Origin: a virus
Lineage: Duplodnaviria; Caudoviricetes
IMG/VR virus record: IMGVR_UViG_3300022725_000123
Span: 1-55,219 of that record
Reading direction: 5' to 3' (one strand)
Length of the DNA stretch: 55,219 nt
A program made the translations under genes and the position numbers. The notes beneath the pieces are model-generated. The model was not told the DNA's origin, searched no databases, and saw nothing but the letters and a program-made list of their open reading frames with translations. The stretch's first letter is position 1; every line of letters begins with the position of its first letter. Of the stretch, positions 1,559 to 55,064 are shown piece by piece.

Positions 1559-4500
1559 CACATTTTTTTTCGCTATTCGTTTTTGCATCATCAGGTAAAG
1601 AAGTAAGTCTACTTCCTTTCTTATTTCGCTTTTTATTTTTTATACTTCTTAACCTACTTTGTTTAGACTCGTTTATATTATCTTTACTCATTGTTTCACT
1701 TTTTGAATCAGGTACCACATTTTCTGTAGGTTCCTTGATAGATAACGAATCTTTAGACTCTTTAGTTTCTTCTACCGTTTTATTAATTTTTGATAAAACT
1801 TTTTTACCTATTCCAGATGTAGGTGAGATTTCATTTCCTTGACTTGCACTATTTTCTGTATTATTTATAATTCTATCATCTTCTGTAACAGCATAAGTAA
1901 AAGTTACATCTTTTTTATTTGTTATTGAAACGTTTTCATATGAAATAAAATTACTTTTAATATGTGCTCTGTTAATAAGTTTGGAATCAGTTATCTTTCT
2001 ATTAGTATTACTATTTATTACCGTACCATCTGGCTCAACTATAACAGACCAATTTGAATTCTTATCTTTTTTTAATAAAATTACGTTACTATCTGGTGAA
2101 GTTTCTTGAACGTTAGTAGTTTGCTGCGCTGACTGTGAATCAGTTGCTTCATCTGTCAACTTATTATCTCCTGATTCCTCTTCTAAATTAAGTGACTCTT
2201 CGACAATTTCTTCAGCACCAGTGTATAACCTATAGAAATCAAAAAATAAAGTACCATTACTTTCATTATCTCCTTTTACTTGATCTGGTGTTTTAAATAT
2301 TTTAGGTTTGTCTGAATAAATATATTTATTTGAAATAAGATATTCAACGTAATCAGAATTATGTAATAAGTCTACGGATACATTGTGACGTTTGTTATTT
2401 TTTAGAAACGAAATGATACTTTGTTTACTTGATTCAACGTTTTCCGCAGTAGCTACTAGTGGTGGAAGCTTTTTATTTTCAGAAGGGTTTTCAGAAATTT
2501 CTTCTGGTATTGTAGTACTATAATGTAGAGCTTCTCCTTTTTTTGCAAAATATAATCTTGTTTTAGGATAGTTATGTGTATTTACATTGTTATATACAAA
2601 AAATTCTAAAACTTTAGAATATGTTAAATCACCAAATAATTCTGAATTTACAGGTGATTTACTTTTTAATTCTTCTGAAATTTCATCATTAAATTCTTTA
2701 CCTTCTATTAGTTTTTCTCTTATTACTTCATAAATAAACTCTGCTTGTTCATCATTAAGTTTAGATCTACCTACTGTAAAAGGTACTTCTTTTCCTGTGT
2801 TATCGATAATAGGTATATATATTTCACCCGGTCTACCTCTTTTTGACTTTGTTTTAGTACCAATAAAAAAAGATTTCTTATCTTTATCTCTATATTGACC
2901 TTTTTTATCAGTATATACTATTTCAAACTCTTGACCTACTACATCAGTTAATAAAAATTCACCTGTTTTTTCAGCAAATGGTAATGCTGACTGACCTGTA
3001 ATAGAACCTTTAACTTTAACGTTTGGACCAAATGATTTTATTTTATCTCTAAATTCAGCATAAGTTTTCGATAAAGGTGTTTTTTCAGTTCCTTTTTCGT
3101 ATAAAAAAGTATATACTATTTCTCCATTGTGTTTAACATAAGAACCATCCTCATTTAAAAACCGTACTACAATAGAATCGTATTCATCAGAAGGCTCATA
3201 AGTAAACTCAGGAGTTAAATTTGTTTTATCAAAAGGTTGTTCTAACCACTCTGAAAAAGTAGGATTCATTTCTTTCTTAACAGCTGCAAATACAAGAGAC
3301 TTTTTACCTGTTACATCCTCTCTTTCAACTTGACTAAAATCAGATTCTTCATTTGGTTGATCGTCATTGTTACTTGTTTCAGGATTACTAGATTCTTCAA
3401 CTTTTTTTAGATTTTCTGCTAAATTATCTATTTCAACTTTATTATCAATATATAGTTGCTTTTCTTCAGCAGGTAAAGAACTACTATTTTTATTAGGATC
3501 ATTTAGTGTTTCAGCAATAGATTTAAACTTTTCTTCTTTTATCTTTTTTATTTCTGCTAGTTTATCAGAAATATTTAATTTCATCCCTCTTTCTTCGGCT
3601 TCTTTTTTTACCTCGTAGACATCTTCTTCTTTTGCAGCGTTACTTAACTTAGTTTTAATTTCATTTCTAACAGCTTCCTGCTTTCCTTCACTGGATGTTA
3701 AAAAGTTATTTCGTTTTACTTGTTTATTAAGTAATGATTTATAAGAATCATATTTTGCCAAAGCTGAAATATACTTACTTAAAATATTTTCCTCTCCTTC
3801 TTGCATAAGAGCTTCTTCGATACCTTTATCCATCTCTTTTTCGGTATCTGTTCTTTCATCTTTAAGCTCTGATAATTCATTTTTATAGATTTCTCTAAGT
3901 TTATCTATTTTATTTTTAATCTTTTTTAATGGTACTTCCTTATCTTCAATAGTATCATCCATTAAAACAGACATCATTTCATTATTACTTTGAACGTCTA
4001 ATGCTTTTATTTTTGAATGAATATCTATTTTTTCTTGTGCGTGTGAAGAAAGTTCATTAAAATTAGGAATAGAAGATTTAATATTGTTAATTTCTTGTTG
4101 CTGTAAATCTTTATTTTTAGAATACTCATCAACAAGTAATTCACCATACGCAATTTCAGCTGCTGATGCTCCATATTTATTAGCTAGTTTTAAATATCTT
4201 TCTCGTAATTTTAAAGCATCTTTTTTTAGTTCTGGAAAACTTTCTTTTACTTTATCGGTATCTATTTTAACTTGATGTTTTTCTTCAAGTTCTAGTATCT
4301 CTTCAGGTGTTAAATTTTCAAATCCTTCTAACATTTCTAAATGATTATCAAATCTATCATTATTGATAGCTGAAATAGTCATATAGAGATTAGCAATTTT
4401 TTTATTTATCTCAGGAGATTCTTCGTTACTTATATTTGAAAATAAATCATTTAATAATTTATCACGTTGTTCAAAGTAACGTTTGTTTTGTTTTCTAGCA

Positions 4501-19444: not shown

Positions 19445-19720
19445 TTAAGCTTCTTGTTTAGTTTTAATTTTACTTTCAATCCAGGATAATGCCTTATTAC
19501 CTATTTCGGTAAAAAATTGCTTGGGGTTGCCGTAGGTAAATACGCCGCCGGCTATAAAGGCCAGTAAGCAATGCCATTGCTTCACTTCATAACCTACCTG
19601 ATTATCAATATTGATCCATCCAAAAAACAATAGCGTAGCCAATACCATAATGGCCATCCCCCAGGCGGTGCTAAACCATTCCTCTATTTCGCAGCGCAAT
19701 TCTTTAATCGTCATTTTCAT
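19445..19720 (-). CDS. two-TM membrane protein, holin candidate
   Basis: Two hydrophobic helices and a basic C-terminus. Confidence 0.45.
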   Translation of the reverse strand: MKMTIKELRCEIEEWFSTAWGMAIMVLATLLFFGWINIDNQVGYEVKQWHCLLAFIAGGVFTYGNPKQFFTEIGNKALSWIESKIKTKQEA

Positions 19721-20103
19721 AGTTTGCTGATTCTTGTAGTTTTAAACCGTCGGCCACCAAATAGACGAACCGCATAATAGGCTACTTTAGCCCGGCGCTG
19801 ATCTATTCCATAATCCTTGAGCATGGTGTAAAAGAGCGCATCAATCAATAAGCGATTGCTGAAAGGCACCCCGTAGCGATATAGATAATCATGCACCAAG
19901 GCCGCTTCGCGATTAATACCATCGGGAAGCATACCGAATACACTCCAAGTCCATCGCGGAGCACTGCCGCCATCATACTCAAAGCCCGAAGGTACCACTA
20001 TACTACCGTGACTTACGTGGCTGGTAAAAGTCTGATCTAAGCGGTAGCCTTGCCCTTGGTTAGGTATTAATATGGGAACAATATGAGCTTGGGGTAGCTG
20101 CAC
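19717..20103 (-). CDS. DUF1353-like protein
   Basis: VPSGFEYDGGSAPR...AALVHDYLY...AVRLFG signature. Confidence 0.8.
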   Translation of the reverse strand: MQLPQAHIVPILIPNQGQGYRLDQTFTSHVSHGSIVVPSGFEYDGGSAPRWTWSVFGMLPDGINREAALVHDYLYRYGVPFSNRLLIDALFYTMLKDYGIDQRRAKVAYYAVRLFGGRRFKTTRISKL

Positions 20104-20107
20104 TGGT

Positions 20108-20602
20108 TTATTGGTAAAATTTATTTTGACTATCTAGCTTGGCTATCTGCGCCCGTATCAAAGGTATGATATCAATTTGCCCACTACTTACCGTTTGGTA
20201 AAGCAGGTTGTATTGACCTAGAGTACCGAGACTATCTATCTTGCTTACCAGCGCACCTTGTTCATTGGCTATACTATCCTGGGGACTAGCTTTATCGCCG
20301 CTGGGGTAATACTGCTCCTCATTATTAAGAGTTTGCACTACGCGGTAACTATATATAGCACGGGTGCCGCTATAATTGTGTACTTGAAAGTATATTTTGA
20401 ACTGCTTTTGCCGCATGTTCCAAAATACATTGGTAACCTGAACATAGCGCTCAAAGCCGGTTACCGTATCGTTGCTGATCTTTTCGGCAATTTGATTGCT
20501 TTGGTTAAGCCTTTTCACTACGGTATCTACCGGGGCTTGCTGAGCGGTAGCGCTTACGGCAAATGTTAAAGCTAAGGCTATTAATAAAATTACTTTTTTC
20601 AT
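20108..20602 (-). CDS. secreted protein with Sec signal peptide
   Basis: Signal peptide MKKVILLIALALTFAVSATA|Q. Confidence 0.6.
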   Translation of the reverse strand: MKKVILLIALALTFAVSATAQQAPVDTVVKRLNQSNQIAEKISNDTVTGFERYVQVTNVFWNMRQKQFKIYFQVHNYSGTRAIYSYRVVQTLNNEEQYYPSGDKASPQDSIANEQGALVSKIDSLGTLGQYNLLYQTVSSGQIDIIPLIRAQIAKLDSQNKFYQ

Positions 20603-20604
20603 GG

Positions 20605-22278
20605 TTATTTTGCTTTTATAATTGTTATGTAAAATTGAACATCTACGGGGGTTCGAGCGGCTGAAAATGGATTGTAAAAGCGAACAGCTACTTGATCTAC
20701 ACCACTGTAATAAGAATCATACGGTAGGTAGCTTAAATTACTTGCAGAGCCGTAAGCTTCGGTAGGAGTGAGTTGTATAGCATCGCCTGGCTGTATGCCC
20801 GGCACGGAATACACTACCACTGTATCTCCGCCGCTAGCAATACTGTTGCCAAAATTCATGCTACTGGTGGTAACCGTGATATAATCCGCCACACTATCGC
20901 GCACGTAGGTTTCGATATTAGTAGCGTTCATTTGGCTGCCGTCAGAGATTAGGGTTTGACCGTTGGTAAGAAAGAGGGAGTTAGCATCCATGAAATTACC
21001 ATTAATAGTTATTCCTTCATCTGCGGTGAAATTTAAATTCTTTTGTGCTCCTAATGAAATGCCATCAGTAGTTAATATTTCAATACTCTTATTTCCTTCA
21101 TAAAAACTACCATTACTTATAACAGATTGCAAGTTTTGGTCACCTGTGTTAATGCCTGAAAGGTTACTTAAATTGGTAATATCACTTGCTGTAATATTTG
21201 ATGCCTGACTTGCAGAATATGTTGGGTCTGTTTCTGTGTAACCTGTTATATACCCAGCTCCATTTGTTAATTCGTTATTATTAGTTGGTATATCTGCTCG
21301 TATAGATGCTGAAGTATCTCCCAACTCTATTCGAGTAATACCTGAAGACGTTATTGCACTAACATCAAATCGAGTGGCTATGGTAGTAAGAGTGTCTGAA
21401 AAAGAAATACCTGATGCAATATTTGAAGCAATCGCACTATCTACTTGAATACGATTATATATAGATGCCGCATTCATTTTGGTACCATCGCTTATTAATG
21501 TTTGACCGTTGGTAAGGGAAAGGCCGTTGGCGTCGATTATATTTCCATTAATATCTATATCATCTAAATAAATTATAGGCCATCTTCTTAAGGCAGTTCC
21601 AAGGGTAGCGTTATTTGTTTGAATTAAAGACCCAAATACTTGCACACTTTTTCCTGTGCCTGGCTTTAAAAACAAATGGTCATTAACCTCAATCATAGGT
21701 AATTCTCCAAGATATTTAGTAAACCAAATTATTTTATTACCGATCTGGTTCTTGATTCCTTTTGTACTTAAAATATGTACTGTATCTTTAATATTTATAC
21801 GAGAACCTCCTTTTGCTACATTAAAAAAAACAAAACTACTGTCACTTTTTATAAACCTAATAAAAGCTACTTGATTATTTTCATTTAATGTATATCTGAT
21901 CTCACTATTATAAGGTGTCTCCGTATCTGAATTTAAAATAAGATTGTTATCATTAATTCCATCAAATATAAAATGATTAGCTTTAAATTTAATCGTATCT
22001 ACATTTTTAAAGTAATGCTGAAAATCAAATATTCTCCAATTTCCTTGATCCCAATAATACAAGCTGCTATCCTTCTTCTGATACACCGCTGCACTATCGC
22101 GCAGGTAAGTAGGGAGCAAGGCGGTATCTTGCAGTACGTGAATGCCGCCGCTTATGTTCTCCATCTTTACCACGCCAAAGGGGCCGGTAGGCTCCAGATC
22201 GCCGCTGCTGCCAAATTTGCCTTGAGCAAAAGCAGTAAGGGAAAAAATGAATGCTATGTAGGTGAGTACTTTTTTCAT
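20605..22278 (-). CDS. fibre-like protein with Sec signal peptide
   Basis: Signal peptide MKKVLTYIAFIFSLTAFA|Q; fibre-type motifs LGTALRRW, IPTNNNELTNGAGYITGYTETDP and NTGDQNLQSV; a duplicated 28-aa segment. Confidence 0.6.
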   Translation of the reverse strand: MKKVLTYIAFIFSLTAFAQGKFGSSGDLEPTGPFGVVKMENISGGIHVLQDTALLPTYLRDSAAVYQKKDSSLYYWDQGNWRIFDFQHYFKNVDTIKFKANHFIFDGINDNNLILNSDTETPYNSEIRYTLNENNQVAFIRFIKSDSSFVFFNVAKGGSRINIKDTVHILSTKGIKNQIGNKIIWFTKYLGELPMIEVNDHLFLKPGTGKSVQVFGSLIQTNNATLGTALRRWPIIYLDDIDINGNIIDANGLSLTNGQTLISDGTKMNAASIYNRIQVDSAIASNIASGISFSDTLTTIATRFDVSAITSSGITRIELGDTSASIRADIPTNNNELTNGAGYITGYTETDPTYSASQASNITASDITNLSNLSGINTGDQNLQSVISNGSFYEGNKSIEILTTDGISLGAQKNLNFTADEGITINGNFMDANSLFLTNGQTLISDGSQMNATNIETYVRDSVADYITVTTSSMNFGNSIASGGDTVVVYSVPGIQPGDAIQLTPTEAYGSASNLSYLPYDSYYSGVDQVAVRFYNPFSAARTPVDVQFYITIIKAK

Positions 22279-23237
22279 TGTGCAATAATTTCGCTGTCGC
22301 TGGTGTAAAGATTGTTGCTTACATAAATATGGTAGCTTTCGGTATAGCCACTCTCATTGGTAAAGCTGCGGGTAGTTTGGGTAAAGCTGGCTAAGCTGCC
22401 AAAGCCATTTACCGTAAGGCTACTCAAATCGCCGTAGCTCGCTGGGTAGGCCAGTACCACGTAGCCCTCCGGGGAGGGGCTTACGCTAAAGGTTTCGCTC
22501 CGGTTGGTGCGCAAAGCGCTGGTTAGGGCTTGTATTTCGCTATCGTTGGGGTTATTATTACTGGCCAGGCCCCAATAATTGGAATTGCGGTAATAGATAG
22601 ATAAGGCATCGCTTACGGTGCCGGTAGGGTTGGTGGCTTGTAAGTTGATGGTAAAATTGGTATTGATGGGAAAGGTAAGCGTATATTGACCCGTGGCGCT
22701 GGCGCTGGTATCAGGCTGGGTGAAGTTTTGAGCTACGCCCTCAATGGTAATGGTGGTAATGGTATCGGAGCTGGATAGGCGGGTTACCGTCCAGTTAGCA
22801 ATAGCGTTATCAATACCAGCAGTACTTTTCTGAACGATAAAATTACTTCCACTAGTGCTGCCCCGAAAGGTGGCGGTAAGGCTGGCTGTAAGCGGTTCAG
22901 CGGGAAAGAATATTTCGCTAAAGGTAGTCCAAGTTTCCCCTTCCAAGGTATTGAAATTGCGGGTAATGGTTTTGCCTTGATATTTAGAAAATATGGAGGT
23001 ATCGGTTACACCTGTTCTCATTAAATTTCTAAACGTAGCTAAATCAACCGTATCAACTTTACCGCTAAGAGGTAATGTCCATAAAATTAAAGTATCTGCT
23101 GTACCCGCGTAGTCTATTATTAAACTATCTTCAACAATTATACCAGATTGAAAAGTTCGATGTGTTGGAGTATTAATAGTTTGACTAAACAAATTAAAAC
23201 TAAGTAACGTAAATAATATGTAAAATAACTTTTTCAT
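22275..23237 (-). CDS. secreted Thr/Ser-rich beta protein (Ig-like/fibre-associated)
   Basis: Signal peptide MKKLFYILFTLLSFNLFS|Q; YWG...YVVLAYPASYG...YHIYVS C-terminal domain. Confidence 0.55.
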   Translation of the reverse strand: MKKLFYILFTLLSFNLFSQTINTPTHRTFQSGIIVEDSLIIDYAGTADTLILWTLPLSGKVDTVDLATFRNLMRTGVTDTSIFSKYQGKTITRNFNTLEGETWTTFSEIFFPAEPLTASLTATFRGSTSGSNFIVQKSTAGIDNAIANWTVTRLSSSDTITTITIEGVAQNFTQPDTSASATGQYTLTFPINTNFTINLQATNPTGTVSDALSIYYRNSNYWGLASNNNPNDSEIQALTSALRTNRSETFSVSPSPEGYVVLAYPASYGDLSSLTVNGFGSLASFTQTTRSFTNESGYTESYHIYVSNNLYTSDSEIIAQ

Positions 23238-39911: not shown

Positions 39912-40253
39912 TTATTTAATTAATTTGTAAAAATCTTCTTTTCTCATTGAAACAAATTCTCCTTCTGTTACAAATCTTGTTTTAGCTTTTTTAACTTTTT
40001 TATGAAATACTACAATGGGTTTATCTTGAAATCTTTCTGGTCTATCATTATTAATAAGTTCATTTAATTTAGGATAATCTTTCTTAACCTTACATTGAAT
40101 ATAATAAGGAAAGTCACCTAAAATATCTATACCTGCATTATCAGCATTTCTAGATTCACTTCGTGCTGTTACTACATCATAACCTAGTTCTTTAAGTTCA
40201 TTAACAATAGAGCGTTCATAATTATTACCAGCTGTTCTATTTCTATTTGCCAT
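39912..40253 (-). CDS. PD-(D/E)xK nuclease / Holliday junction resolvase
   Basis: NRTAGNNYER...GIDI...IQCK...PIVVFHK. Confidence 0.8.
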   Translation of the reverse strand: MANRNRTAGNNYERSIVNELKELGYDVVTARSESRNADNAGIDILGDFPYYIQCKVKKDYPKLNELINNDRPERFQDKPIVVFHKKVKKAKTRFVTEGEFVSMRKEDFYKLIK

Positions 40254-40728
40254 CTTTTATTCTAGAAAATTCAAAACCAAGTTGAAATTTAACTTCACAT
40301 AAATAATTATATGACTTGTTTATAGCATTCCAATAATTATAATTAAAGTGTTCTTCATTAGTAGCATTTAAAGTTCTACCATGCCTTCTATTTAAACTTT
40401 CAATTAATTTTTGAATTTCTTGTCTCAACCAATCTACTTTTTCAATATGATTCCAATTTGCATATTTAGTATCATCAAACTTACTAAATTTTAAAATATC
40501 ATTATCTACATCTTGAGTAGGTACAATATCTTCTTTAGTTTTATATCCTGATTTATAAGGGTTCTCTGTACCTAATTCAGAAAGAACTTTACCGAGCCAA
40601 GCTTTTGAAAGATATAGACTATCTACAGCTTTTTCTATTTCTTTATATTTATATAAAGGTTTTAATCCTTTTGTGAGTTGAGCTAAACCATCTATAGAAA
40701 CTCTCAATTCTTTTATTTTACTAATCAT
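40243..40728 (-). CDS. tandem helical-hairpin protein, possible Acb2/Tad1-like
   Basis: Two internal repeats of the form LR..I...(helix)..L.....[WQ]LG; see findings. Confidence 0.4.
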   Translation of the reverse strand: MISKIKELRVSIDGLAQLTKGLKPLYKYKEIEKAVDSLYLSKAWLGKVLSELGTENPYKSGYKTKEDIVPTQDVDNDILKFSKFDDTKYANWNHIEKVDWLRQEIQKLIESLNRRHGRTLNATNEEHFNYNYWNAINKSYNYLCEVKFQLGFEFSRIKDGK

Positions 40729-41033
40729 AAATTGTATTTATTTAATATTTTATTAGTACTTTCATTTATAGTTTCTTGTAATTCTTTATTTAATTTTCTA
40801 GAATATTTATTAATTAAATATTGAATATCTTCTTCATCTAATTCTAAAAGTTCGGTATATCGTGGTCCACCAAAATGTATTGTTGCTGGACAATATGCAG
40901 AGTAACATAAGTGAAAGTTAATTCTATTCACATAATCACTTATCATTTCATGGGAGTTGAGAGGTTTTCTGTTTTTAATAATTTCTTGATTTTTATTCCT
41001 CTCTTTGTATTTTTTAATAAAATCTATAATCAT
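40725..41033 (-). CDS. hypothetical protein
   Basis: ORF track; coupled. Confidence 0.5.
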   Translation of the reverse strand: MIIDFIKKYKERNKNQEIIKNRKPLNSHEMISDYVNRINFHLCYSAYCPATIHFGGPRYTELLELDEEDIQYLINKYSRKLNKELQETINESTNKILNKYNL

Positions 41034-41073
41034 TACTCATATTTTTTCTAAGTATTTAACAGGTTTAACTTTT

Positions 41074-41268
41074 TCATTCATACGTTTTAGTCTTTAATTC
41101 ATTATCGAACTCTTCTACCGTTCCTAAATACATTCTGGTATCTTGAGCCATTAATTCAAATGCTGTTTTAAATTCTTCTGATGTACCATTTAACAAATCA
41201 ATTGTTATACGTGGAGTTCCATCAGCCATTGTATTCACTTTTACTACTTGTACTTCTGTTGCTATCAT
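41074..41268 (-). CDS. hypothetical protein
   Basis: TMADGTPRITIDL motif; ORF track. Confidence 0.5.
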   Translation of the reverse strand: MIATEVQVVKVNTMADGTPRITIDLLNGTSEEFKTAFELMAQDTRMYLGTVEEFDNELKTKTYE

Positions 41269-41340
41269 TATATTCTTTTGTTTTACGTTTTTCTGTTATA
41301 AATAAGCTAATTATATATCCTAATATTAATAAGTAATATG

Positions 41341-41985
41341 CTAACATTCTAAATAATTAATAATATCTGTTAGAGCGTCATTTCTATGATTAGACGTAAG
41401 TGTGATGTATCCACAAAGATTTGTGTTTTCTAATTTTATAGTCTTATAAATACATGAGTTCTTACCTATTTTATCATCAATTTGTTCTTTAGAACCACAA
41501 AATATAATTTTAGAATCTTCTCCTAACCTTGTAAGAATAGTTCTAAAATCTTTATAATCCATATCTTGATATTCGTCGACAATTACTACCGAATCCATAA
41601 ATGTAACACCTTTTGCAACTTCAATCGGCATTATTCTAATTTCATCTTTTTGAAGCATTGCTTCTGTAGTATTCTTAGCTTGACACACATTTAAATTTTG
41701 TATAATCGGAAATACATAGGGTTGCATTTTTTCTTCTAGTGTACCCGGAAGTGCAGCAAGATTATTTTTAATCATTGGTCTTGTAATCCAAATTTTATTA
41801 AATAGTCTTTTTCTGAAAGACATGAGTGCTACATAACAAGCTGCAAGTGATTTACCTGATCCAAAATCCCCATGAATAAAAGTTACATCATAATTATGAA
41901 ATAATGTATGAAACTCTTTTTGCTCTTCATTAAGTTGAATATTAAGTCTTGGATTATTTGGTACTCTTTTAGTTTTATTTGACAT
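41341..41985 (-). CDS. phoH: PhoH-family ATPase
   Basis: Walker A GDFGSGKS, ITRP, LPGTLEEK, KGVTF, VDEYQD, LTRLG and NHR motifs. Confidence 0.9.
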   Translation of the reverse strand: MSNKTKRVPNNPRLNIQLNEEQKEFHTLFHNYDVTFIHGDFGSGKSLAACYVALMSFRKRLFNKIWITRPMIKNNLAALPGTLEEKMQPYVFPIIQNLNVCQAKNTTEAMLQKDEIRIMPIEVAKGVTFMDSVVIVDEYQDMDYKDFRTILTRLGEDSKIIFCGSKEQIDDKIGKNSCIYKTIKLENTNLCGYITLTSNHRNDALTDIINYLEC

Positions 41986-42370
41986 TCAATTGTTCTAATA
42001 ATTTTCTAAGTTCTGATTTGTTTTTTATAATTCCTCTAAATTCTGTATCGTCGTATAAATAAGGTTGTGATATAGAATATTTATTATTTCCTAAATCTAC
42101 TAACATATATGTATTAAAGAAAAATTGATAAGGTAACTTACCTTGTTTAAACCCTAAACTTTCTATTTCTTTTTGATCTAAGTATTTAACTTTTAGTTGA
42201 GCAATACTATCATGTATATAATAATCTAAAAATTCTCTTAGTTCTCTTGGAGTTTCTATAGTAATTTTAGCCCAACTACTATCTTCATCAGGTAATCTTT
42301 CATCTTGTAGAGATTCATATTCAAACCCTACATAAAACTCTGAAATATCAGGTGTATAATATTTATTCAT
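41975..42370 (-). CDS. hypothetical protein
   Basis: KYYTPDISEFYVGFEYE...KYLD..IESLGF...IKNKSEL, a pattern recurrent in Bacteroidota phages. Confidence 0.6.
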   Translation of the reverse strand: MNKYYTPDISEFYVGFEYESLQDERLPDEDSSWAKITIETPRELREFLDYYIHDSIAQLKVKYLDQKEIESLGFKQGKLPYQFFFNTYMLVDLGNNKYSISQPYLYDDTEFRGIIKNKSELRKLLEQLNVK

Positions 42371-42557
42371 CTAATTTCAAATATTTATAACTTACAACAT
42401 ACATATCGTCTTCACTCTCGATATCTATCTTAATAAATCTATCTTTAACATCGTGTAATTCTTTATATTCAATAAATGACTTTTGTCTCCTAACTAAAGC
42501 TTCAAAAGCTTTTAATAAATCACTTGTTTGTATTTTTCCTTGTGCGAGAATTTGCAT
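42363..42557 (-). CDS. hypothetical protein
   Basis: ORF track; coupled. Confidence 0.45.
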   Translation of the reverse strand: MQILAQGKIQTSDLLKAFEALVRRQKSFIEYKELHDVKDRFIKIDIESEDDMYVVSYKYLKLDE

Positions 42558-42711
42558 TTAACCAGTTTTCAATTGTTTCTAAATAAGTATAATTAACGGC
42601 ACCACAATCCGCACATAAAGGAACAGACATATATTCCTTAATAGCTAACGAATTACAATTTTTACAAACTTCAACTGGTTGTGAATTGTAGTAATCTTTT
42701 GATTTGTTCAT
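42520..42711 (-). CDS. Zn-finger protein
   Basis: YN..PV..CKNCNSLAI...CADCG. Confidence 0.65.
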   Translation of the reverse strand: MNKSKDYYNSQPVEVCKNCNSLAIKEYMSVPLCADCGAVNYTYLETIENWLNANSRTRKNTNK

Positions 42712-42937
42712 TTTTACTAAGCTTATTTATTTTTTGTAAATCATCTGTTGGGTAACTAGTTTTAATCAATTCACACATTGCGTTAAATTTTAAAACCCCT
42801 TCAATAAGTTCCTTATTACTTTTAAAGTTTATTCGCTTTTCAAAAGGAATAATTTTAGATTCTTTATCAAAGTAAATATTTGTTTTTAACTCTAATAAAT
42901 CTTTTACTTGATAATCTACAACTGGATATATATTCAT
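42671..42937 (-). CDS. hypothetical protein
   Basis: ORF track. Confidence 0.45.
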   Translation of the reverse strand: MNIYPVVDYQVKDLLELKTNIYFDKESKIIPFEKRINFKSNKELIEGVLKFNAMCELIKTSYPTDDLQKINKLSKNEQIKRLLQFTTS

Positions 42938-43179
42938 TTTATTTTTAAATTTGTAACAGTATTATCACTTTTAAAAACAGCAACTGTACTATCTGTAAGT
43001 CTAACTGTATCAGGTAATCTATTTTTTAATTCTTGATACCTTTGATAAGCAATAACACTATCTAAGTAAACTTCTTTGTTTTCACAATCATATACAGGAA
43101 TTTCATAATAACTGTTATTGTGTTCTGTTGGTGCATATCCTATTGAAACTACACACCATGTAATAATCCATGTTTTCAT
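42934..43179 (-). CDS. hypothetical protein (first gene of leftward block)
   Basis: Likely start MKTWIITWC; ORF track. Confidence 0.4.
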   Translation of the reverse strand: MKTWIITWCVVSIGYAPTEHNNSYYEIPVYDCENKEVYLDSVIAYQRYQELKNRLPDTVRLTDSTVAVFKSDNTVTNLKIK

Positions 43180-43358
43180 TTTTATAAGAAAACGCAATCA
43201 CATAATTAAAGTTTATAAAGAAAAAAATTTTTTATATAAATTGAAATTTTTTTATATATTACGGAGGTTTTTGTATAATAAACAACTCCCCCCACCGTTA
43301 TCAAAATTTGGGCGCATAGGGTATGTGCCTTTAATCTAACATTAAAACCCTAATTGCT

Positions 43359-44040: not shown

Positions 44041-44081
44041 CTTTCTTGTATTTTAATCTTTTATTAACTTAAAATAGCATT

Positions 44082-44380
44082 ATGAAAACAGTATACGTTG
44101 CCGATAAAAATCTTATGGTGCTGAATTCTATGGTGTTTTTCCATCTCTTGATGAACTTAAAAGAGCTATTGTAACTCATGAGTTTCTTTTTGAAGAAGAG
44201 CCTCCTGAGTACTCTGAAGAACTGTTTGAACAGTGTAAAACTGATGGACAATATACTTTATTTAAAGTGCAACTTCATGAAGATGAGCAAGTTGTGTTCA
44301 GTGAATACGATGGAAAGTCTTGGTTTGATATAGAAAAGATCGAGAAAAACATCTTATCAAAGACAACTGAAATTTATTAA
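44082..44380 (+). pseudogene. about 99-aa acidic gene split by a 1-nt frameshift at an A5 run
   Basis: MKTVYVADK (ATG 44082) continues in the -1 frame as KSYGAEFYGVFPSLDELKRA...KTTEIY*. That frame has a TAA at 44105 and no start of its own. Confidence 0.65.
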
Positions 44381-44404
44381 CAATTAAAAAAAACATAACT
44401 AATT

Positions 44405-44485
44405 ATGGAAGAATACATATTGTCTCTTTTAGAGAGAGACGAAACCATTCTTGTAGATGAAGAGGAAATCTACATGTTTTTGTAA
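44405..44485 (+). CDS. 26-aa acidic peptide
   Basis: MEEYILSLLERDETILVDEEEIYMFL with the same A-rich ...TAATTATG leader as neighbouring genes. Confidence 0.45.
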   Translation: MEEYILSLLERDETILVDEEEIYMFL

Positions 44486-44487
44486 CC

Positions 44488-45254
44488 GCTTATAGAAAGC
44501 GTCCTAAGTGCTTATTATAACTTGTACAGGTTATATAACTACATAAGTAAAAGAACTTAAAAGAGTGTTAGTGTAGTTAATAACACAAACTTGTTTAATA
44601 CCTTGAGAAAGTATTAAATGTATCTGGAAGTTATCCTACTTAGGGATTTTAAGGATTTCTTACTTGTATGTAACTATCTCTTTTATGGGCGAGGTTATCG
44701 TAAGTGCGACATGTGTACGCATAACGTTAATTGTGGTTCAAGTCCACAGTAGTTACTACAAGTTTTAATACTAACAAGGAGTGTTGCATCCCTTTATTTA
44801 TTTAAATAAAAGTTGAAACCTCTTGTAATAATCTCACTTGATATAGAATACCGACATTGATGGTGAGAAAAGGTATTTGTATTATTACAAGTTTCATAAG
44901 AGAAAATCTTATGAGTAGAATGTAGTTAGGAAGTGTATGTGGAGGAACAGTCTCTCAGCTTCAAACCTACATTCTTTAAAAGATTATTGTTTAACATTAA
45001 TAAACAGTTTCTTGTAACGTTGGAGTAAAATACCAGAGAGTGTATTACCTCTTGGTTTGGTTGAAAATCCATCATACAACCTTACAAGTTAACAAAACAG
45101 TTTCTTGTAATATATATGGAATCACAGAGAGTTGTAAGGTTAGCAATTAAATCCTTATGAACCAGATTGTGATGGTTGCCTTTGCGTGGAAATATATGTA
45201 GCTACTATTACAAGTTGTAGTATGAAAACATACTATGTAAAACTGTTTTTTTTT
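44488..45254 (+). ncRNA. putative structured ncRNA / array of CTTGTA...TACAAGTT cassettes
   Basis: No ORF; tiled by stems; four bracketed units (44662-44763, 44822-44891, 45011-45088, 45104-45214); ends in a T-run. Confidence 0.6.
44670..44757 (+). ncRNA. tRNA-like domain
   Basis: GTAACTAT/GTAGTTAC acceptor-like stem stacked on a TGTGG-TTCAAGT-CCACA T-arm; the middle arms are non-canonical. Confidence 0.55.
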
Positions 45255-45274
45255 ATTACTTAAAACTAAGTAAA

Positions 45275-45430
45275 ATGAAACAAATTTATGTTCTGGTTCA
45301 ATGGCCAGAATCGCAAAATTACATGGAAGAAAATTGGTTTTATGAAGAAGCTATTCTTTATCAAGCTAATAAATATCAAGAACACTTAGACAGTGCGTAT
45401 TTTATACCACTAAAAAGAAGAATAATTTAA
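45275..45430 (+). CDS. 51-aa hypothetical protein (not in ORF track)
   Basis: MKQIYVLVQWPESQNYMEENWF...SAYFIP, a pattern seen in Bacteroidota phage small proteins; A-rich leader. Confidence 0.65.
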   Translation: MKQIYVLVQWPESQNYMEENWFYEEAILYQANKYQEHLDSAYFIPLKRRII

Positions 45431-47341: not shown

Positions 47342-47345
47342 CATT

Positions 47346-47559
47346 TAACTACCAACTAATTTATTTTATAAAATGAAAAGGGGCTACTAGACAGAATGAG
47401 TTAACCAACGTACAAATGTGTATGAGGTGCAATAGGTCTTGATTACCTGAATCTAAATATGATATTACTACAGTAATCAAAGATAAATAAGGGACTGTTG
47501 AAAATCCTAGAAACTAGACAGTTTGATATTTAGATAGTTTTATAAAAAGTTGGTAGTTA
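47346..47559 (-). ncRNA. putative structured RNA bounded by 12-bp inverted repeat
   Basis: TAACTACCAACT/AGTTGGTAGTTA, with inner ATCTAAATAT/ATATTTAGAT and TTGATTAC/GTAATCAA; strand inferred from the adjacent promoter. Confidence 0.4.
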
Positions 47560-47600
47560 TTTCTTTTCAACAAAGAAAAGAAAGTAGCAAAGAAAAGAAA
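47560..47600. other. intrastrand triplex-forming motif
   Basis: TTTCTTTTC-AAC-AAAGAAAAGAAA-GTAGC-AAAGAAAAGAAA. Confidence 0.6.
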
Positions 47601-47671
47601 TTTTATTCCTGTATACAATTGTTACTTTGTAACATTGCTTTACAAGATTAAAATCTTGAAAAGAATTTCAG

Positions 47672-47703
47672 CAAAGGTACAACATTTAAATATAAATGTC
47701 AAG
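47672..47703 (-). promoter_or_regulatory. Bacteroidota-type promoter, antisense to early genes
   Basis: Minus strand CTTG-N20-TACCTTTG; the spacer contains the palindrome ACATTTA-N4-TAAATGT. Confidence 0.6.
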
Positions 47704-47740
47704 TGCTTTTTGTAGAAAAAGGATGAAATACCCATATTAA

Positions 47741-47794
47741 TTAGTTAACGATAAGTTTGACTTAGTTAACGATGGGTATCAATTAGTTTATGTT
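47741..47794. repeat. 21-bp-phased direct repeats
   Basis: TTAGTTAACGAT at 47741 and 47762, degenerate TTAGTTTATGTT at 47783; the first two are flanked by ATACCCAT/ATGGGTAT. Confidence 0.6.
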
Positions 47795-47800
47795 AGATGG

Positions 47801-47857
47801 AAAAGAAGTGACATGATTTGGATGAATGATGGAAGGAGTCACTTCTTTTTTTTTTTT
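47801..47857 (+). terminator. terminator-like hairpin abutting tRNA-Arg
   Basis: AAAAGAAGTGAC/GTCACTTCTTTT stem with a long loop and a long T-run ending at the tRNA 5' end. Confidence 0.5.
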
Positions 47858-47931
47858 GGTCTTATAGCTCAATTGGATAGAGCCATTGTCTTCTAAGCAA
47901 TAGGTTTCAGGTTCGAGTCCTGATAAGATCA
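47858..47931 (+). tRNA. trnR: tRNA-Arg(TCT)
   Basis: Acceptor GGTCTTA/TAAGATC, D-arm GCTC..GAGC, anticodon arm ATTGT-CT-TCT-AA-GCAAT, T-arm TCAGG-TTCGAGT-CCTGA; no encoded CCA. Confidence 0.92.
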
Positions 47932-47958
47932 CTTGTATTAATTTAAATAAATAGTAAA

Positions 47959-48303
47959 ATGAAAAGAGTAAAAAATGAAGTTACTGGAAAGATGGAAACT
48001 CATTTCCAAGGGAGAATTACCAAAATTACTGATTTGGGGTTGTCCAATAGTAATGGTAAACCTTATTGTGTGTGTACTATCGAGTATGAAAACATAAAAG
48101 GTGAAAGTAAGAAATCTTCTGGTATTATTTACAGTAATTCTATGAATGCTGTAGATTTTCAAAATGGAGATGAATGTAATGTGAGAGCGCTTCCCCCTAA
48201 TGACAAAGGAGAAGTATTGCTTATTGCGGATCCTCTTTCAAGTATTCCACAACGTGCTACCGTTGAGGATTTTGAACTTGAAGAGGATACTGTAAAAGCT
48301 TAA
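47959..48303 (+). CDS. putative single-stranded DNA-binding (OB-fold) protein
   Basis: Beta-rich (FQGRITKI..NSNGKPY), acidic C-terminal tail, own terminator, upstream of the replication genes. Confidence 0.5.
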   Translation: MKRVKNEVTGKMETHFQGRITKITDLGLSNSNGKPYCVCTIEYENIKGESKKSSGIIYSNSMNAVDFQNGDECNVRALPPNDKGEVLLIADPLSSIPQRATVEDFELEEDTVKA

Positions 48304-48309
48304 TTAAAT

Positions 48310-48348
48310 AGTGTTGTCGGCAATAACTGTCGGCAACACTTTATTTTT
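48310..48348 (+). terminator. intrinsic terminator
   Basis: AGTGTTGTCGGCA-ATAAC-TGTCGGCAACACT followed by TTATTTTT. Confidence 0.75.
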
Positions 48349-48353
48349 CACAT

Positions 48354-48479
48354 ATGAAATTAAAATTGTTAGCAAGTATTGTTTTACTCTTAGGAATATT
48401 CGTAGTAACACAAGGAGATTTTCTTTTTGGATTACTTCTTATTTTTCTAAGCGTACAAAGTTTAATATTAATAGAATGA
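48354..48479 (+). CDS. 41-aa two-TM membrane peptide (not in ORF track)
   Basis: MKLKLLASIVLLLGIFVVTQGDFLFGLLLIFLSVQSLILIE. Confidence 0.5.
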   Translation: MKLKLLASIVLLLGIFVVTQGDFLFGLLLIFLSVQSLILIE

Positions 48480-48488
48480 AACTAAATA

Positions 48489-48797
48489 ATGGAACTAAAC
48501 AAAAAAAGCAGAAAAAATCTAAGATTTGATTTAATATCTATTTTAGAAATAGATCATAAGGTATTACGCTTTACTAAAGGTACCTATCTTCTTAATAATA
48601 AAATTATACAGTTTGAAGATGAACAACTTTGTAAATCTGAAAATTACGCAAAAGGTGTAGGTTATTTAACTGATGATGTTGGATGGATACCTAAAGGAAC
48701 TAGGGTTTATATTAAAAATAATGTTTTATTTTTTAATCATTATAGAATAAAATTAAAAAATAAACCTAAAATATTAACTCATGCGAATAACATTTGA
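48489..48797 (+). CDS. hypothetical protein
   Basis: ORF track; WIPKGT motif. Confidence 0.5.
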   Translation: MELNKKSRKNLRFDLISILEIDHKVLRFTKGTYLLNNKIIQFEDEQLCKSENYAKGVGYLTDDVGWIPKGTRVYIKNNVLFFNHYRIKLKNKPKILTHANNI

Positions 48798-54206: not shown

Positions 54207-55064
54207 ATGAAAATAGTAATATTAAGAAGACGTGGGTTAGGAAACACGTCTACTATAGGAATTAAAAGTAATTCCAATAACAATATTGAAATTACTAGAA
54301 ACGATAAAGAAATTCCTCAAGATACTGATTTATTGATTAGATGGGGGTGTACTTCACAATTTCCTTCAAAAAAAACTTTAAATAAAGCAGAGGGAATTAA
54401 AGCAATTAATAATAAATATCTATCTCGTAAAATATTACAAGAAGCAGGTGTTAGTGTTCCTAAATTATATGAAGATATTGAAGCTGTTGATACGTTTCCA
54501 GTAATAGTAAGACCTGAATATCATGCTCAAGGTAAAATATTGTATTACTGTAATAACCAAGGTGAATTGTTTGACGCTGAATATCACATAAGCAACTTAG
54601 GTAAAGACGTTTATATATCTGAATATATTAAAAAAGACAGAGAGTTTGGTGTATTTATATTTAATAATCGTATTTGGAGTGTAATTGAAAAAGTTCCTAA
54701 AATTGAAGGAGCAAATAATGAAATTGCTTGGAATGTAGCTCAAGGTACACATCGATTTCAAAATGTAAAATGGAGTGAATGGCCAATTGAAATATGTAAA
54801 GAAGCTTTAGATGCAGTTAAGTGTTTTAATATAGACTTTTGTAGAGTAGATATTATTGTAAAAGATAATAAACCTTACATATTAGAATTAAATTCAGCAC
54901 ATAGTCTTACTAGTAATTATAGACAAGAAGCATTTGCAAAATGCCTTGATTATTTTATTGAAAATGGTAGTGTTAAAAATGAATTAGAATTAGATAATCT
55001 CACTTCTTATAAAGGTTTAATACATCCTGCCTTACGAATAAATAAAAAACTTATAAATTTATAA
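54207..55064 (+). CDS. ATP-grasp (RimK-like) ligase
   Basis: IRWG, NNKY, GVSVP, FPVIVRP..H..G, SEYI..REF, VDI and ILELNSA motifs. Confidence 0.85.
   Translation: MKIVILRRRGLGNTSTIGIKSNSNNNIEITRNDKEIPQDTDLLIRWGCTSQFPSKKTLNKAEGIKAINNKYLSRKILQEAGVSVPKLYEDIEAVDTFPVIVRPEYHAQGKILYYCNNQGELFDAEYHISNLGKDVYISEYIKKDREFGVFIFNNRIWSVIEKVPKIEGANNEIAWNVAQGTHRFQNVKWSEWPIEICKEALDAVKCFNIDFCRVDIIVKDNKPYILELNSAHSLTSNYRQEAFAKCLDYFIENGSVKNELELDNLTSYKGLIHPALRINKKLINL

Follow-up and report, generated by a model that had tools for sequence, protein, structure and literature searches.

What is the role of a row of inverted repeats that lies in gene-free phage DNA and brackets bodies of unrelated sequence? The question is raised by positions ~44.49-45.26 kb of the IMG/VR record IMGVR_UViG_3300022725_000123, a stretch of 55,219 nt referred to here as the window. 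The window is an environmental crAss-like phage, and the record (55 kb) holds only ~55% of the genome. Phages of the crAss-like group rank with the most abundant known. A preliminary description, made from the letters alone, had read the block as four structured-RNA cassettes closed by the same stem, that is, as a constant handle carrying variable RNA payloads. We have examined the statistics of the brackets, the folding of the units, the relation to known RNA and DNA classes, and the corresponding regions of related loci.

Genomic setting of the gene-free block

The block lies ~0.8 kb inside the rightward block of replication genes and adjoins the strand switch and the GC-skew minimum; the minimum of cumulative GC skew, at ~43-44 kb, is the meeting point of the - strand late genes and the + strand replication genes. 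The genes on either side of the block are on the + strand, and downstream follow the DNA polymerase, 3.5-4.3 kb from the block, and helicases. The longest open reading frame in the block is 49 amino acids under table 11, 63 amino acids (wholly within the block) when TAG is read as Q, and 49 amino acids when TGA is read as W; an 84-amino-acid TAG=Q frame at 45176-45430 is the flanking gene at 45275 read upstream. Coding DNA under another code was accordingly rejected, as no long frame opens inside the block with either reassignment, and the description of the block as free of open reading frames stands under all three codes. ARAGORN at default settings finds a tRNA-Thr and a tRNA-Arg in the window, both outside the block; the tRNA-Arg (47858-47932) is the sole + strand tRNA, and CTTGTA lies directly 3′ of it.

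The bracket array and the pairing of its arms

CTTGTA (+) alternates four times with TACAAG (-) in the block, and the four brackets of the preliminary description were recovered at the same positions (Table 1). Its further details were found as well: the extended arms of all four units, a single common 3′ ending (TACAAGTT in 4 of 4 arms), a 5′ context common to units 3 and 4 (AAACAGTTTCTTGTAA), the spacer hairpins, and a stem with a T run that closes the block. The units are 70, 78, 100 and 111 nt long with closing helices of at least 7 bp, and the spacing of partner arms is irregular (48-95 nt).

Table 1. Features of the gene-free block, with the positions at which the CTTGTA and TACAAG cores of each unit begin
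Feature	Position	Strand	Cores	Description
Extra upstream copy TATTATAACTTGTA	44513..44526	+		Possible rival partner (44757-44770) for the 3′ arm of unit 1; 14 nt, 93% complementary
Unit 1	44662..44763	+	44663/44757	Extended arms of 7 nt, bulge, 8 nt: outer helix ACTTGTA/TACAAGT, bulged T, inner 8-pair helix 44670-44677/44749-44756; also a long central hairpin
Unit 1, T-arm-like hairpin	44732-44748	+		TGTGG-TTCAAGT-CCACA
Spacer	44764..44821	+		Small A/T hairpin, then GTTGAAAC; folding no better than that of shuffles (z +0.28); weak Rfam matches only
Unit 2	44822..44891	+	44822/44886	11-bp closing helix CTTGTAATAAT/ATTATTACAAG, 100% complementary
Unit 2, interior				H-type pseudoknot as one possible drawing by hand: TCTCAC/GTGAGA with GAATACC/GGTATTT
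Two spacer hairpins	44893-44915 and 44917-44975	+		110-nt stretch z -3.40, 0 of 200 shuffles as good
Unit 3	45002..45088, including left context AAACAGTTT	+	45011/45083	12-nt closing helix CTTGTAACGTTG/CAACCTTACAAG, one mismatch
Unit 4	45095..45214, including left context AAACAGTTT	+	45104/45209	9-bp closing helix CTTGTAATA/TATTACAAG
Small hairpin	45218..45235	+		TAGTATG-AAAA-CATACTA
Long-range stem AACAAAACAGTTT/AAACTGTTTTTTT	45091-45103/45240-45252	+		13 nt, 92%; encloses unit 4 and the small hairpin; 3′ arm enters a T9 run (45246-45254), a possible transcript end

Matches to CTTGTA/TACAAG are strongly concentrated, with 9 of the 56 in the window falling within the 767-nt block against 0.66 expected (post hoc Poisson 3.7e-8); further, unpaired copies of the core lie nearby at 44045, 44450 and 44521. 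CTTGTA is the only hexamer with at least two G/C that gives a tandem chain of four brackets. For hexamers of this composition, first-order Markov simulated genomes gave a chain of four in 0 of 300 and a chain of three in 1 of 300, counts for which the G/C filter matters, since without it 33 of 100 simulations reach four by way of A/T-only hexamers. Beyond the core, pairing extends inward by 7, 6, 5 and 5 pairs in a sequence that differs from unit to unit, and the sum of 23 was reached in 0 of 200,000 draws of random flanks (mean sum 5.1, maximum 20). Because this unit-specific pairing exceeds all random draws, the pairing itself is selected, and because the extensions are specific to each unit, a plain sequence motif is ruled out: the helix is kept, not the motif alone. 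The bracket array is clearly not a product of chance, and its four closing helices have been kept by selection around unrelated bodies, which bears out the proposal of a constant pairing element. The interiors are mutually unrelated in 6 of 6 pairwise alignments (z between -1.3 and 1.1); AATcACAGAGAGT is common to units 3 and 4 at an almost equal offset.

Because its repeats are inverted, with pairing that spans the variable part, the block is not a CRISPR array, as had been argued; these repeats measure 7-12 nt, unlike the direct repeats of 24-48 nt in such arrays. The hairpin followed by GTTGAAAC in the first spacer (44785-44821) presumably resembles Cas13b-type repeats. As a mimic of a CRISPR repeat it was rejected: its 19-mer gave 10 single matches in the genome collection, with a gapped pattern 9 of 401 genomes of one phylum had matches, 10 in all and each of them single, versus 6 for the reversed control, and, as no array was found, the idea was dropped.

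Folding and strand

The preliminary description had each interior folding, as a tRNA-like cloverleaf, a pseudoknot or branched hairpins. With the brackets removed, none of the four interiors folds better than its shuffles: z was -1.66 for unit 1 (11 of 200 shuffles as good), +0.14 for unit 2 (106 of 200), -0.75 for unit 3 (42 of 200) and +0.23 for unit 4 (113 of 200), the value for unit 2 coming from nested folding, which is blind to the pseudoknot proposed there. A loose cloverleaf, its loops oversized, can also be drawn by hand for unit 3. With the brackets included, z was -3.04 for unit 1 (1 of 200 shuffles as good) and -1.65, -1.84 and -0.76 for units 2-4. Folding that surpasses shuffled controls was thus seen for the entire unit 1, for the 110-nt spacer stretch and for the whole block, not for the interiors. 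For the whole block z was -2.86 on the + strand (0 of 20 shuffles as good) versus -8.46 on the - strand (20 shuffles each), the - strand folding about as well as the + strand, as inverted repeats must. Among 200-nt segments with 20 shuffles each, + strand z was at or below -2.0 in 7 of the 10 starting at 44301-45201, and in only 1 of the 33 coding segments starting at 40001-43201. The minimum-free-energy fold of the whole block closes units 1, 3 and 4 locally, and the 11-bp closing helix of unit 2 is not formed in it.

Folding energies differ between the strands for individual units, the + strand being the more stable for unit 1 (-31.1 versus -26.7 kcal/mol), unit 2 (-13.4 versus -12.4) and unit 4 (-22.1 versus -16.1), and the - strand for unit 3 (-20.6 versus -17.5). 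An unpaired TT follows the 3′ arm in 4 of 4 units, whereas the 5′ arms are preceded by TA, CT, TT and TT, not by AA. Furthermore, the T-loop-like TTCAAGT of unit 1 and a T.G pair of its inner helix are read on the + strand. The TT asymmetry, the T-loop-like motif, the T9 run and the + strand flanking genes together point to the + strand.

Candidate readings and related loci

We read the block, tentatively and with a little less than even confidence, as a + strand non-coding transcript built of modules closed by stems, with a common helix that serves a single factor, for processing or for binding. The block would be a non-coding part of the rightward transcript at the start of the replication-gene block, folding as a row of separately closed modules, and the four modules would end in one terminal helix, 5′-CUUGUA...UACAAG-3′, followed by unpaired UU. 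This helix would be the recognition element for a single hypothetical factor, either an endoribonuclease that excises the modules as 70-111-nt RNAs or a protein that binds all of them, and a tRNA-like gene may be the ancestor of unit 1 and perhaps of unit 3. We infer here that there is transcription, its strand, processing and a partner, as distinct from the non-randomness of the brackets and the selection for pairing in each unit. No candidate protein that binds or cuts the handle was identified, and a role as decoy of host defence, raised earlier, is pure conjecture. The four identical closing helices provide a concrete, mutable handle for probing the role of such RNAs.

The logic of such modules, a stem that is shared and loops that differ, would be that of the Y RNAs. 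These are bound by Ro60/Rsr, include bacterial and phage YrlA, and occur as several RNAs of 80-130 nt per genome; the long stem formed by their 5′ and 3′ ends bears the protein-binding site, the loops differ, at least one member has a tRNA-like domain, and some are phage-encoded (PMC4201824). The putative modules of the block resemble them in their end-closed stems and differing bodies. The block differs from them in that the Y RNA motif GNCGAAN0-1G has 0 matches on either strand of 44400-45300, the YrlA family (RF02553) has no Rfam match in the window or the block, and a search for Ro60 (TROVE, PF05731) through the 55-kb record, ~55% of the genome, gave nothing at E<=1. Furthermore, the order described for YrlA is T arm, acceptor-like hairpin and D arm, whereas unit 1 has the ordinary tRNA order with its ends closing the helix. 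Should the handle be there for a nuclease or a binding protein, the block would represent the Y-RNA logic in a phage.

The inverted repeats could instead be sites of an origin-binding or regulatory protein, or hairpins of single-stranded DNA, in a DNA-level element at the divergent switch; we regard this as unlikely, if with an appreciable share of the probability. The position at the GC-skew minimum and strand switch is that expected of an origin, unpaired cores occur nearby, and in vitro the virion RNA polymerase of crAss-like phages is reported to work preferentially on single-stranded templates (10.1101/2020.03.07.982082). Motif scans of viral contigs gave, among the matches listed, single and chance-like occurrences; the local clusters among the matches listed are iteron-like arrays in unrelated, G+C-richer phages (L217, L278/L291 and L413). 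Arrays of the TTGTAAC type in L217, L278 and L413, in intergenic DNA and in both orientations, agree with a DNA element, as an illustration only, because these loci were chosen by the motif itself. A protein-binding box, however, has no need of a unit-specific pairing extension, the sites are unphased and irregularly spaced without the direct doublets of L413, the TT that follows the 3′ arms is not mirrored by an AA before the 5′ arms, and gene orientation confounds the GC skew. Nor was an initiator protein identified. At a distance of 48-95 nt the arms are poorly placed for cruciforms, and loops of that length suit RNA domains better. If the element acts as DNA, it would mark the place where an uncultured phage lineage has its origin or control region.

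Rather doubtful is the explanation that the units are relics or offshoots of a tRNA gene cluster, diverged tRNA-like duplicates whose acceptor-type stem was kept or homogenised without any special function as a handle, and which may be processed by ordinary tRNA enzymes or may be decaying. The lengths of the units and helices are in the tRNA range, the window has two ordinary tRNAs, unit 3 can be drawn as a cloverleaf, and units 3 and 4 resemble a tandem duplication (whole-unit alignment z 6.7). In unit 1 the T-arm-like hairpin is flush with the 8-pair helix, and ARAGORN calls this unit at a relaxed threshold, at which many overlapping poor calls appear; an anticodon arm of a 5-bp stem and a 7-nt loop appears only in the call at -ps80, with a mismatched stem, and the energy minimum has a 38-nt hairpin in its place. 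A 5-bp T stem with a TTCRANN loop flush with a 7-bp helix is present in 1 of 4 units (unit 1), and also in 73 of 300 simulated genomes. Of the cloverleaf claimed for unit 1, the T-arm-like hairpin beside a long helix remains, and a tRNA is recognised neither by Rfam nor by default ARAGORN. The Rfam tRNA model (RF00005) matches 0 of 4 units even at E<=10, with no match in 44300-45400 or in 44655-44770 (116 nt), and ARAGORN with introns allowed gives no match in the window. Units 2 and 4 are without a T arm, four perfect helices with compensated extensions are unexpected in decaying genes, and an acceptor stem is not normally common to different tRNAs. In the tRNA cluster of phage T4 (species 1 and 2) and in the tRNA-linked RNAs of murid gammaherpesvirus 68, tRNA-shaped handles stand beside non-tRNA small RNAs and admit host processing enzymes; in the window, by contrast, the units are not recognisable tRNAs and the handle is a plain helix.

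A single non-coding RNA of ~770 nt that works as a whole, with the arms as alternative pairings for switching or self-assembly and not as ends of separate small RNAs, is more doubtful still. As the core is identical, the arms are interchangeable across units, each 5′ arm being able to pair with every 3′ arm; the upstream copy at 44513..44526 is a potential competitor for the unit 1 3′ arm, the whole block surpasses its shuffles on the + strand, and a long-range stem with a T run lies at its end. GOLLD and ROOL, which are found in phages and prophages, are several hundred nucleotides long and often lie near tRNAs. The preliminary description had named this size class and suggested a comparison with Rfam; when it was run, no family matched the block, GOLLD and ROOL matching neither at the gathering score nor at E<=10. 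At the gathering score the whole window yields only the two tRNAs, at E<=10 the region 44300-45400 yields four weak, chance-level matches (RAGATH-34, Flavo-1, snR83 and CRISPR-DR21), and the block has no match to the tmRNA covariance model. The local closure of units 1, 3 and 4 in the minimum-free-energy fold also argues against one long RNA. A precedent, for the favoured transcript of modules as well as for one long RNA, is the cultured crAss-like phage phi14:2. Two of its long intergenic regions, close to where the rightward genes begin, are reported to be transcribed rightward, already at the first time point and more strongly than most genes, and their products have been termed long non-coding RNAs of unknown function (10.1101/2020.03.07.982082). 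Both the phi14:2 regions and the block are long and gene-free and lie, in a crAss-like genome, close to the beginning of the rightward genes; transcription is reported for phi14:2 and predicted for the block. They differ in that phi14:2 has no sequence similarity to the window and no repeated bracket, and its region is in part a tmRNA (4031-4500), which the block is not. As to invertible segments, inverted repeats with a common core are present; that the ~55% of the genome in the record contains no integrase or resolvase makes such segments less likely. The contig set of one sequenced sample, the probable source, contains a single contig identical to the window, without joints or variants, an assembly that bears neither on inversion nor on expression.

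To return to stem-closed modules, related loci were collected with the polymerase, which gave 20 viral loci at 40-47% identity and 26 metagenome loci. The two nearest relatives both start past the block, L141 (67%) at a position equivalent to ~45.7 kb of the window and L142 (75% over polymerase residues 216-613) inside the polymerase gene; upstream of its polymerase L141 has almost nothing in common with the window. PhoH as query found no relative and the 163-amino-acid neighbour one unrelated contig, so that with these three queries no relative holding the block region was found, and comparison of the block with the 20 viral loci by blastn and nhmmer gave nothing credible. The distant relatives with polymerases 40-47% identical (L005, L006, L007, L013, L148-L151 and others) carry a tmRNA and arrays of tRNA-like units with one common acceptor stem, AGTCAGG/CCTGACT. 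The middle of these units varies (66 to 146 nt); they score 40-47 bits on the Rfam tRNA model and have large anticodon-arm insertions, which also speaks for tRNA relics. Like the block, they form tandem units on the polymerase strand with one closing helix and very different middles, whereas their helix is AGTCAGG, they lie ~1-2 kb upstream of the polymerase as opposed to 3.5-4.3 kb, and they share no sequence similarity with it. A constant closing helix with variable bodies thus recurs in this phage group.

A more far-reaching version of the favoured reading, which we consider rather improbable, is a multi-RNA cassette defined by its handle: an early operon would present several unrelated RNA bodies on one identical terminal helix, so that one protein or nuclease, of host or phage, loads them, cuts them or is soaked up by them, or else the arms would swap partners and assemble. 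In the literature searched, a limited collection, no description of such an array was found. If the cassette reading is true, it would, together with the shared-acceptor arrays of the relatives, mark a class of RNAs not described before, "one stem, many bodies", among the crAss-like phages of the environment.

Architecture of the bracketed array

In the gene-free block at 44488–45254 (767 nt), four units are each closed by a bracket, in which a CTTGTA 5′ arm pairs across the interior with a TACAAG 3′ arm (see the table). This array is genuine: it departs from chance, and selection has acted on its pairing. The coordinates and sequences in a preliminary description made by a model from the sequence alone proved correct on rechecking against the window, as did the identical 3′ arms (TACAAGTT in all four units), the left context AAACAGTTTCTTGTAA common to units 3 and 4, the spacer hairpins and closing stem with a T9 run, and the mutually unrelated interiors (z between −1.3 and 1.1 for six of six pairs). 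No sizeable reading frame opens inside the block, whether it is translated with table 11, with TAG=Q, or with TGA=W. The arms lie 48–95 nt apart within units, TT follows all four 3′ arms with no mirror AA at the 5′ arms, and additional unpaired copies of the CTTGTA core occur close to the block. Units 3 and 4 look like an old tandem duplication because they share the left flank and a 13-mer at nearly equal offset.

Coordinates of the bracketed units, the flanking gene blocks, and the arrays of related viral loci
Feature	Position	Strand or arms	Remark
Bracket, unit 1	44663/44757	CTTGTA on +, complement as 3′ arm	alternation 1 of 4
Bracket, unit 2	44822/44886	CTTGTA on +, complement as 3′ arm	alternation 2 of 4
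Bracket, unit 3	45011/45083	CTTGTA on +, complement as 3′ arm	alternation 3 of 4
Bracket, unit 4	45104/45209	CTTGTA on +, complement as 3′ arm	alternation 4 of 4
− strand genes	up to 43689	−	terminase, portal, major head protein, tail protein, RusA, PhoH among them
+ strand genes	from 43710	+	DNA polymerase, two helicases, DnaB-like primase/helicase among them
tmRNA and tandem units	L005 7889–8962	polymerase strand	shared acceptor helix
tmRNA and tandem units	L007 1252–2084	polymerase strand	shared acceptor helix
tmRNA and tandem units	L013 8128–8960	polymerase strand	shared acceptor helix

Nine of the 56 matches to the CTTGTA/TACAAG hexamer in the window fall inside the block, against 0.66 expected (a post hoc figure). 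In a hexamer-blind test of hexamers with at least two G/C, CTTGTA was the sole one with a tandem chain of four brackets, and first-order Markov simulations yielded a four-bracket chain in 0/300 and a three-bracket chain in 1/300. The G/C filter matters, since A/T-only hexamers give a four-bracket chain in 33/100 simulations once it is removed. The strongest result against chance is the extension of pairing inward of the core by unit-specific sequence, amounting to 7, 6, 5, and 5 Watson–Crick pairs in units 1–4 (one defect allowed); random flanks from the same genome gave a mean sum of 5.1, and the observed 23 was reached in 0/200,000 draws. Pairing has thus been kept unit by unit, which is more than the keeping of a motif.

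Folding and tRNA likeness

On the + strand, whole units 1–4 had z values of −3.04, −1.65, −1.84, and −0.76, and a 110-nt spacer had −3.40 (0/200 shuffles as good). The preliminary claim that each interior folds failed the shuffle control proposed along with it, with z values of −1.66, +0.14, −0.75, and +0.23 upon removal of the brackets, so the folding signal comes from the closing helices and spacer hairpins. Hand drawing yields two candidate folds, a pseudoknot in unit 2 and a loose cloverleaf in unit 3. In a + strand sliding scan with 20 shuffles per window, z was at or below −2.0 in 7/10 windows at 44.3–45.4 kb and in 1/33 windows of coding sequence at 40.0–43.4 kb. The − strand of the block folds comparably, since inverted repeats must fold on both strands.

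The tRNA-like cloverleaf proposed for unit 1 reduces to one hairpin next to a helix. This TGTGG-TTCAAGT-CCACA hairpin, which resembles a T arm, directly abuts an 8-pair helix that in turn stacks beneath the outer bracket, and a hairpin of this kind occurs elsewhere in the window only in the two real tRNAs; the Rfam tRNA model gave no match to the unit (116-nt search, E≤10). T-arm-like hairpin and helix pairs arise by chance at 0.26 per genome (at least one in 73/300 simulations), and ARAGORN calls unit 1 only once its threshold is relaxed, the anticodon stem then being poor. The tRNA likeness is thus a lead, not membership.

Related arrays and known RNA families

The window (55,219 nt) comprises an entire IMG/VR virus record with an estimated completeness of about 55%, and its DNA polymerase is 31–33% identical to those of crAss-like phages. 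The closest polymerases come from two metagenome contigs: the first (67%) starts shortly after the block, and the second (75%, matched over part of the protein) starts within the polymerase gene. Searches with the polymerase, PhoH, and a 163-aa neighbour turned up no genome containing the block region, and DNA upstream of the polymerase in the 67% contig is almost wholly unlike that of the window. A permuted tmRNA is predicted by ARAGORN at 1436–1845 of the 67% contig (L141). Among 20 viral loci with polymerases 40–47% identical, neither similarity to the block nor a CTTGTA cluster was found (at most 6 per 800 nt vs 10 in the window).

In three viral loci (L005, L007, and L013), a tmRNA is followed by tandem tRNA-like units 1–2 kb upstream of the polymerase, with a common AGTCAGG/CCTGACT acceptor helix, D and T arms, and inserts replacing the anticodon region; the middles differ, and lengths range from 66 to 146 nt. 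The helix also occurs in L006, L011, L020, L021, L144, and L148–L151. The Rfam tRNA model matches three of four L005 units at 40–47 bits, with 11–71 nt where the anticodon region is expected, and ARAGORN at default settings calls none of the four. A 145-nt unit of L005 recurs in L148 with its interior kept and its acceptor helix changed on both sides. The D arm is presumably similar to that of bacterial tRNA-Leu. The use of a single closing helix for many bodies thus recurs in this phage group; the window array is not demonstrably homologous to these tandem arrays, and they may be the more tractable case.

The array belongs to no known family, and the suggested GOLLD/ROOL class was not borne out, as the block matched nothing in Rfam at gathering score or E≤10, including GOLLD, ROOL, YrlA, tmRNA, and CRISPR repeats. 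We place it close to a kind already known, clusters of viral small RNAs that share one handle. The closest comparison in logic is with Y RNAs, described as several small RNAs under one conserved stem, one tRNA-like and some phage-encoded (PMC4201824). Their defining features fail here: the motif GNCGAAN0-1G is absent from both strands of 44400–45300, no TROVE gene occurs in the 55-kb record (about 55% of the genome), and the arm order of unit 1 differs from YrlA. At 44784–44821, an A/T hairpin and then GTTGAAAC resemble a lone CRISPR repeat; this reading was rejected, with no matching array in the genome collection or 401 one-phylum genomes.

RNA- and DNA-level readings

We tentatively favour an RNA reading, in which the stem-closed modules would form part of a + strand non-coding transcript, the shared helix would serve as the handle by which one nuclease or one binding protein acts on all of them, and unit 1, perhaps unit 3, would derive from tRNA. 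RNA is favoured by the spacing of the arms, the unit-specific helix extensions, the one-sided TT, T-loop and G·U features on the + strand, the T9 run at the block end, and the precedent of phi14:2. In this cultured crAss-like phage, according to a preprint, a pair of long intergenic regions lies close to where the rightward genes begin. Both are transcribed rightward already at the first time point, exceed most genes in level, and remain abundant, and the authors term them long non-coding RNAs of unknown function; the preprint also reports that early transcripts lack a shared upstream motif and that the virion polymerase has a preference for single-stranded DNA (Drobysheva, 10.1101/2020.03.07.982082). 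Part of the highly transcribed early region, 4031–4500 of NC_021806, is a tmRNA by ARAGORN (46 bits on Rfam, cut-off 47), and its remainder has neither sequence similarity to the window nor a repeated bracket. A lone T-arm-like piece lies at about 1806–1843, in a separate intergenic stretch.

That the block acts as DNA instead, at an origin or in a control region, is a minor possibility. It gains from the minimum of cumulative GC skew, which falls at the switch from − to + strand genes, with the block about 0.8 kb into the + strand genes after three very small ORFs, and from the unpaired core copies and the payloads lacking thermodynamic signal. Similar cores also form iteron-like repeats in unrelated phages, on contigs picked by the motif search itself. 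Unrelated, G+C-richer phage contigs (L413 420–760, L217 2020–2270, and L278 11590–11840) carry dense intergenic arrays of TTGTAAC-type repeats; the repeats face both ways, some of them form phased doublets, and the arrays resemble iterons of an operator or origin. Relics of a tRNA cluster are improbable, and a single long RNA using interchangeable arms is quite improbable. Judged from a single assembled contig, invertible DNA segments seem unlikely owing to the short spacing and the lack of a recombinase in the 55-kb record (estimated completeness about 55%).

Another stretch free of genes, about 515 nt long and within 47342–47932, also folds strongly (z −5.21, 0/100 shuffles as good) and ends in a hairpin and T12 run immediately 5′ of tRNA-Arg(TCT) (47858–47932), itself followed immediately by CTTGTA; it had no Rfam family match or tmRNA call, and relatives carry a tmRNA at a comparable place. 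Just upstream of the polymerase gene, 48001–48500 has + strand z of −3.3 to −5.6 and free energy as low as −59.8 kcal/mol per 200 nt, with overlapping short ORFs of doubtful reality. At 19501–23000, GC skew is flat and G+C is 0.39–0.41 vs about 0.28 elsewhere, which may point to a block of genes that is foreign or under unusual constraint. The protein encoded at 54207–55064 matches a phage family annotated ribosomal protein S6 glutaminyl transferase (E 8.5e-20), and a host-takeover function is possible.
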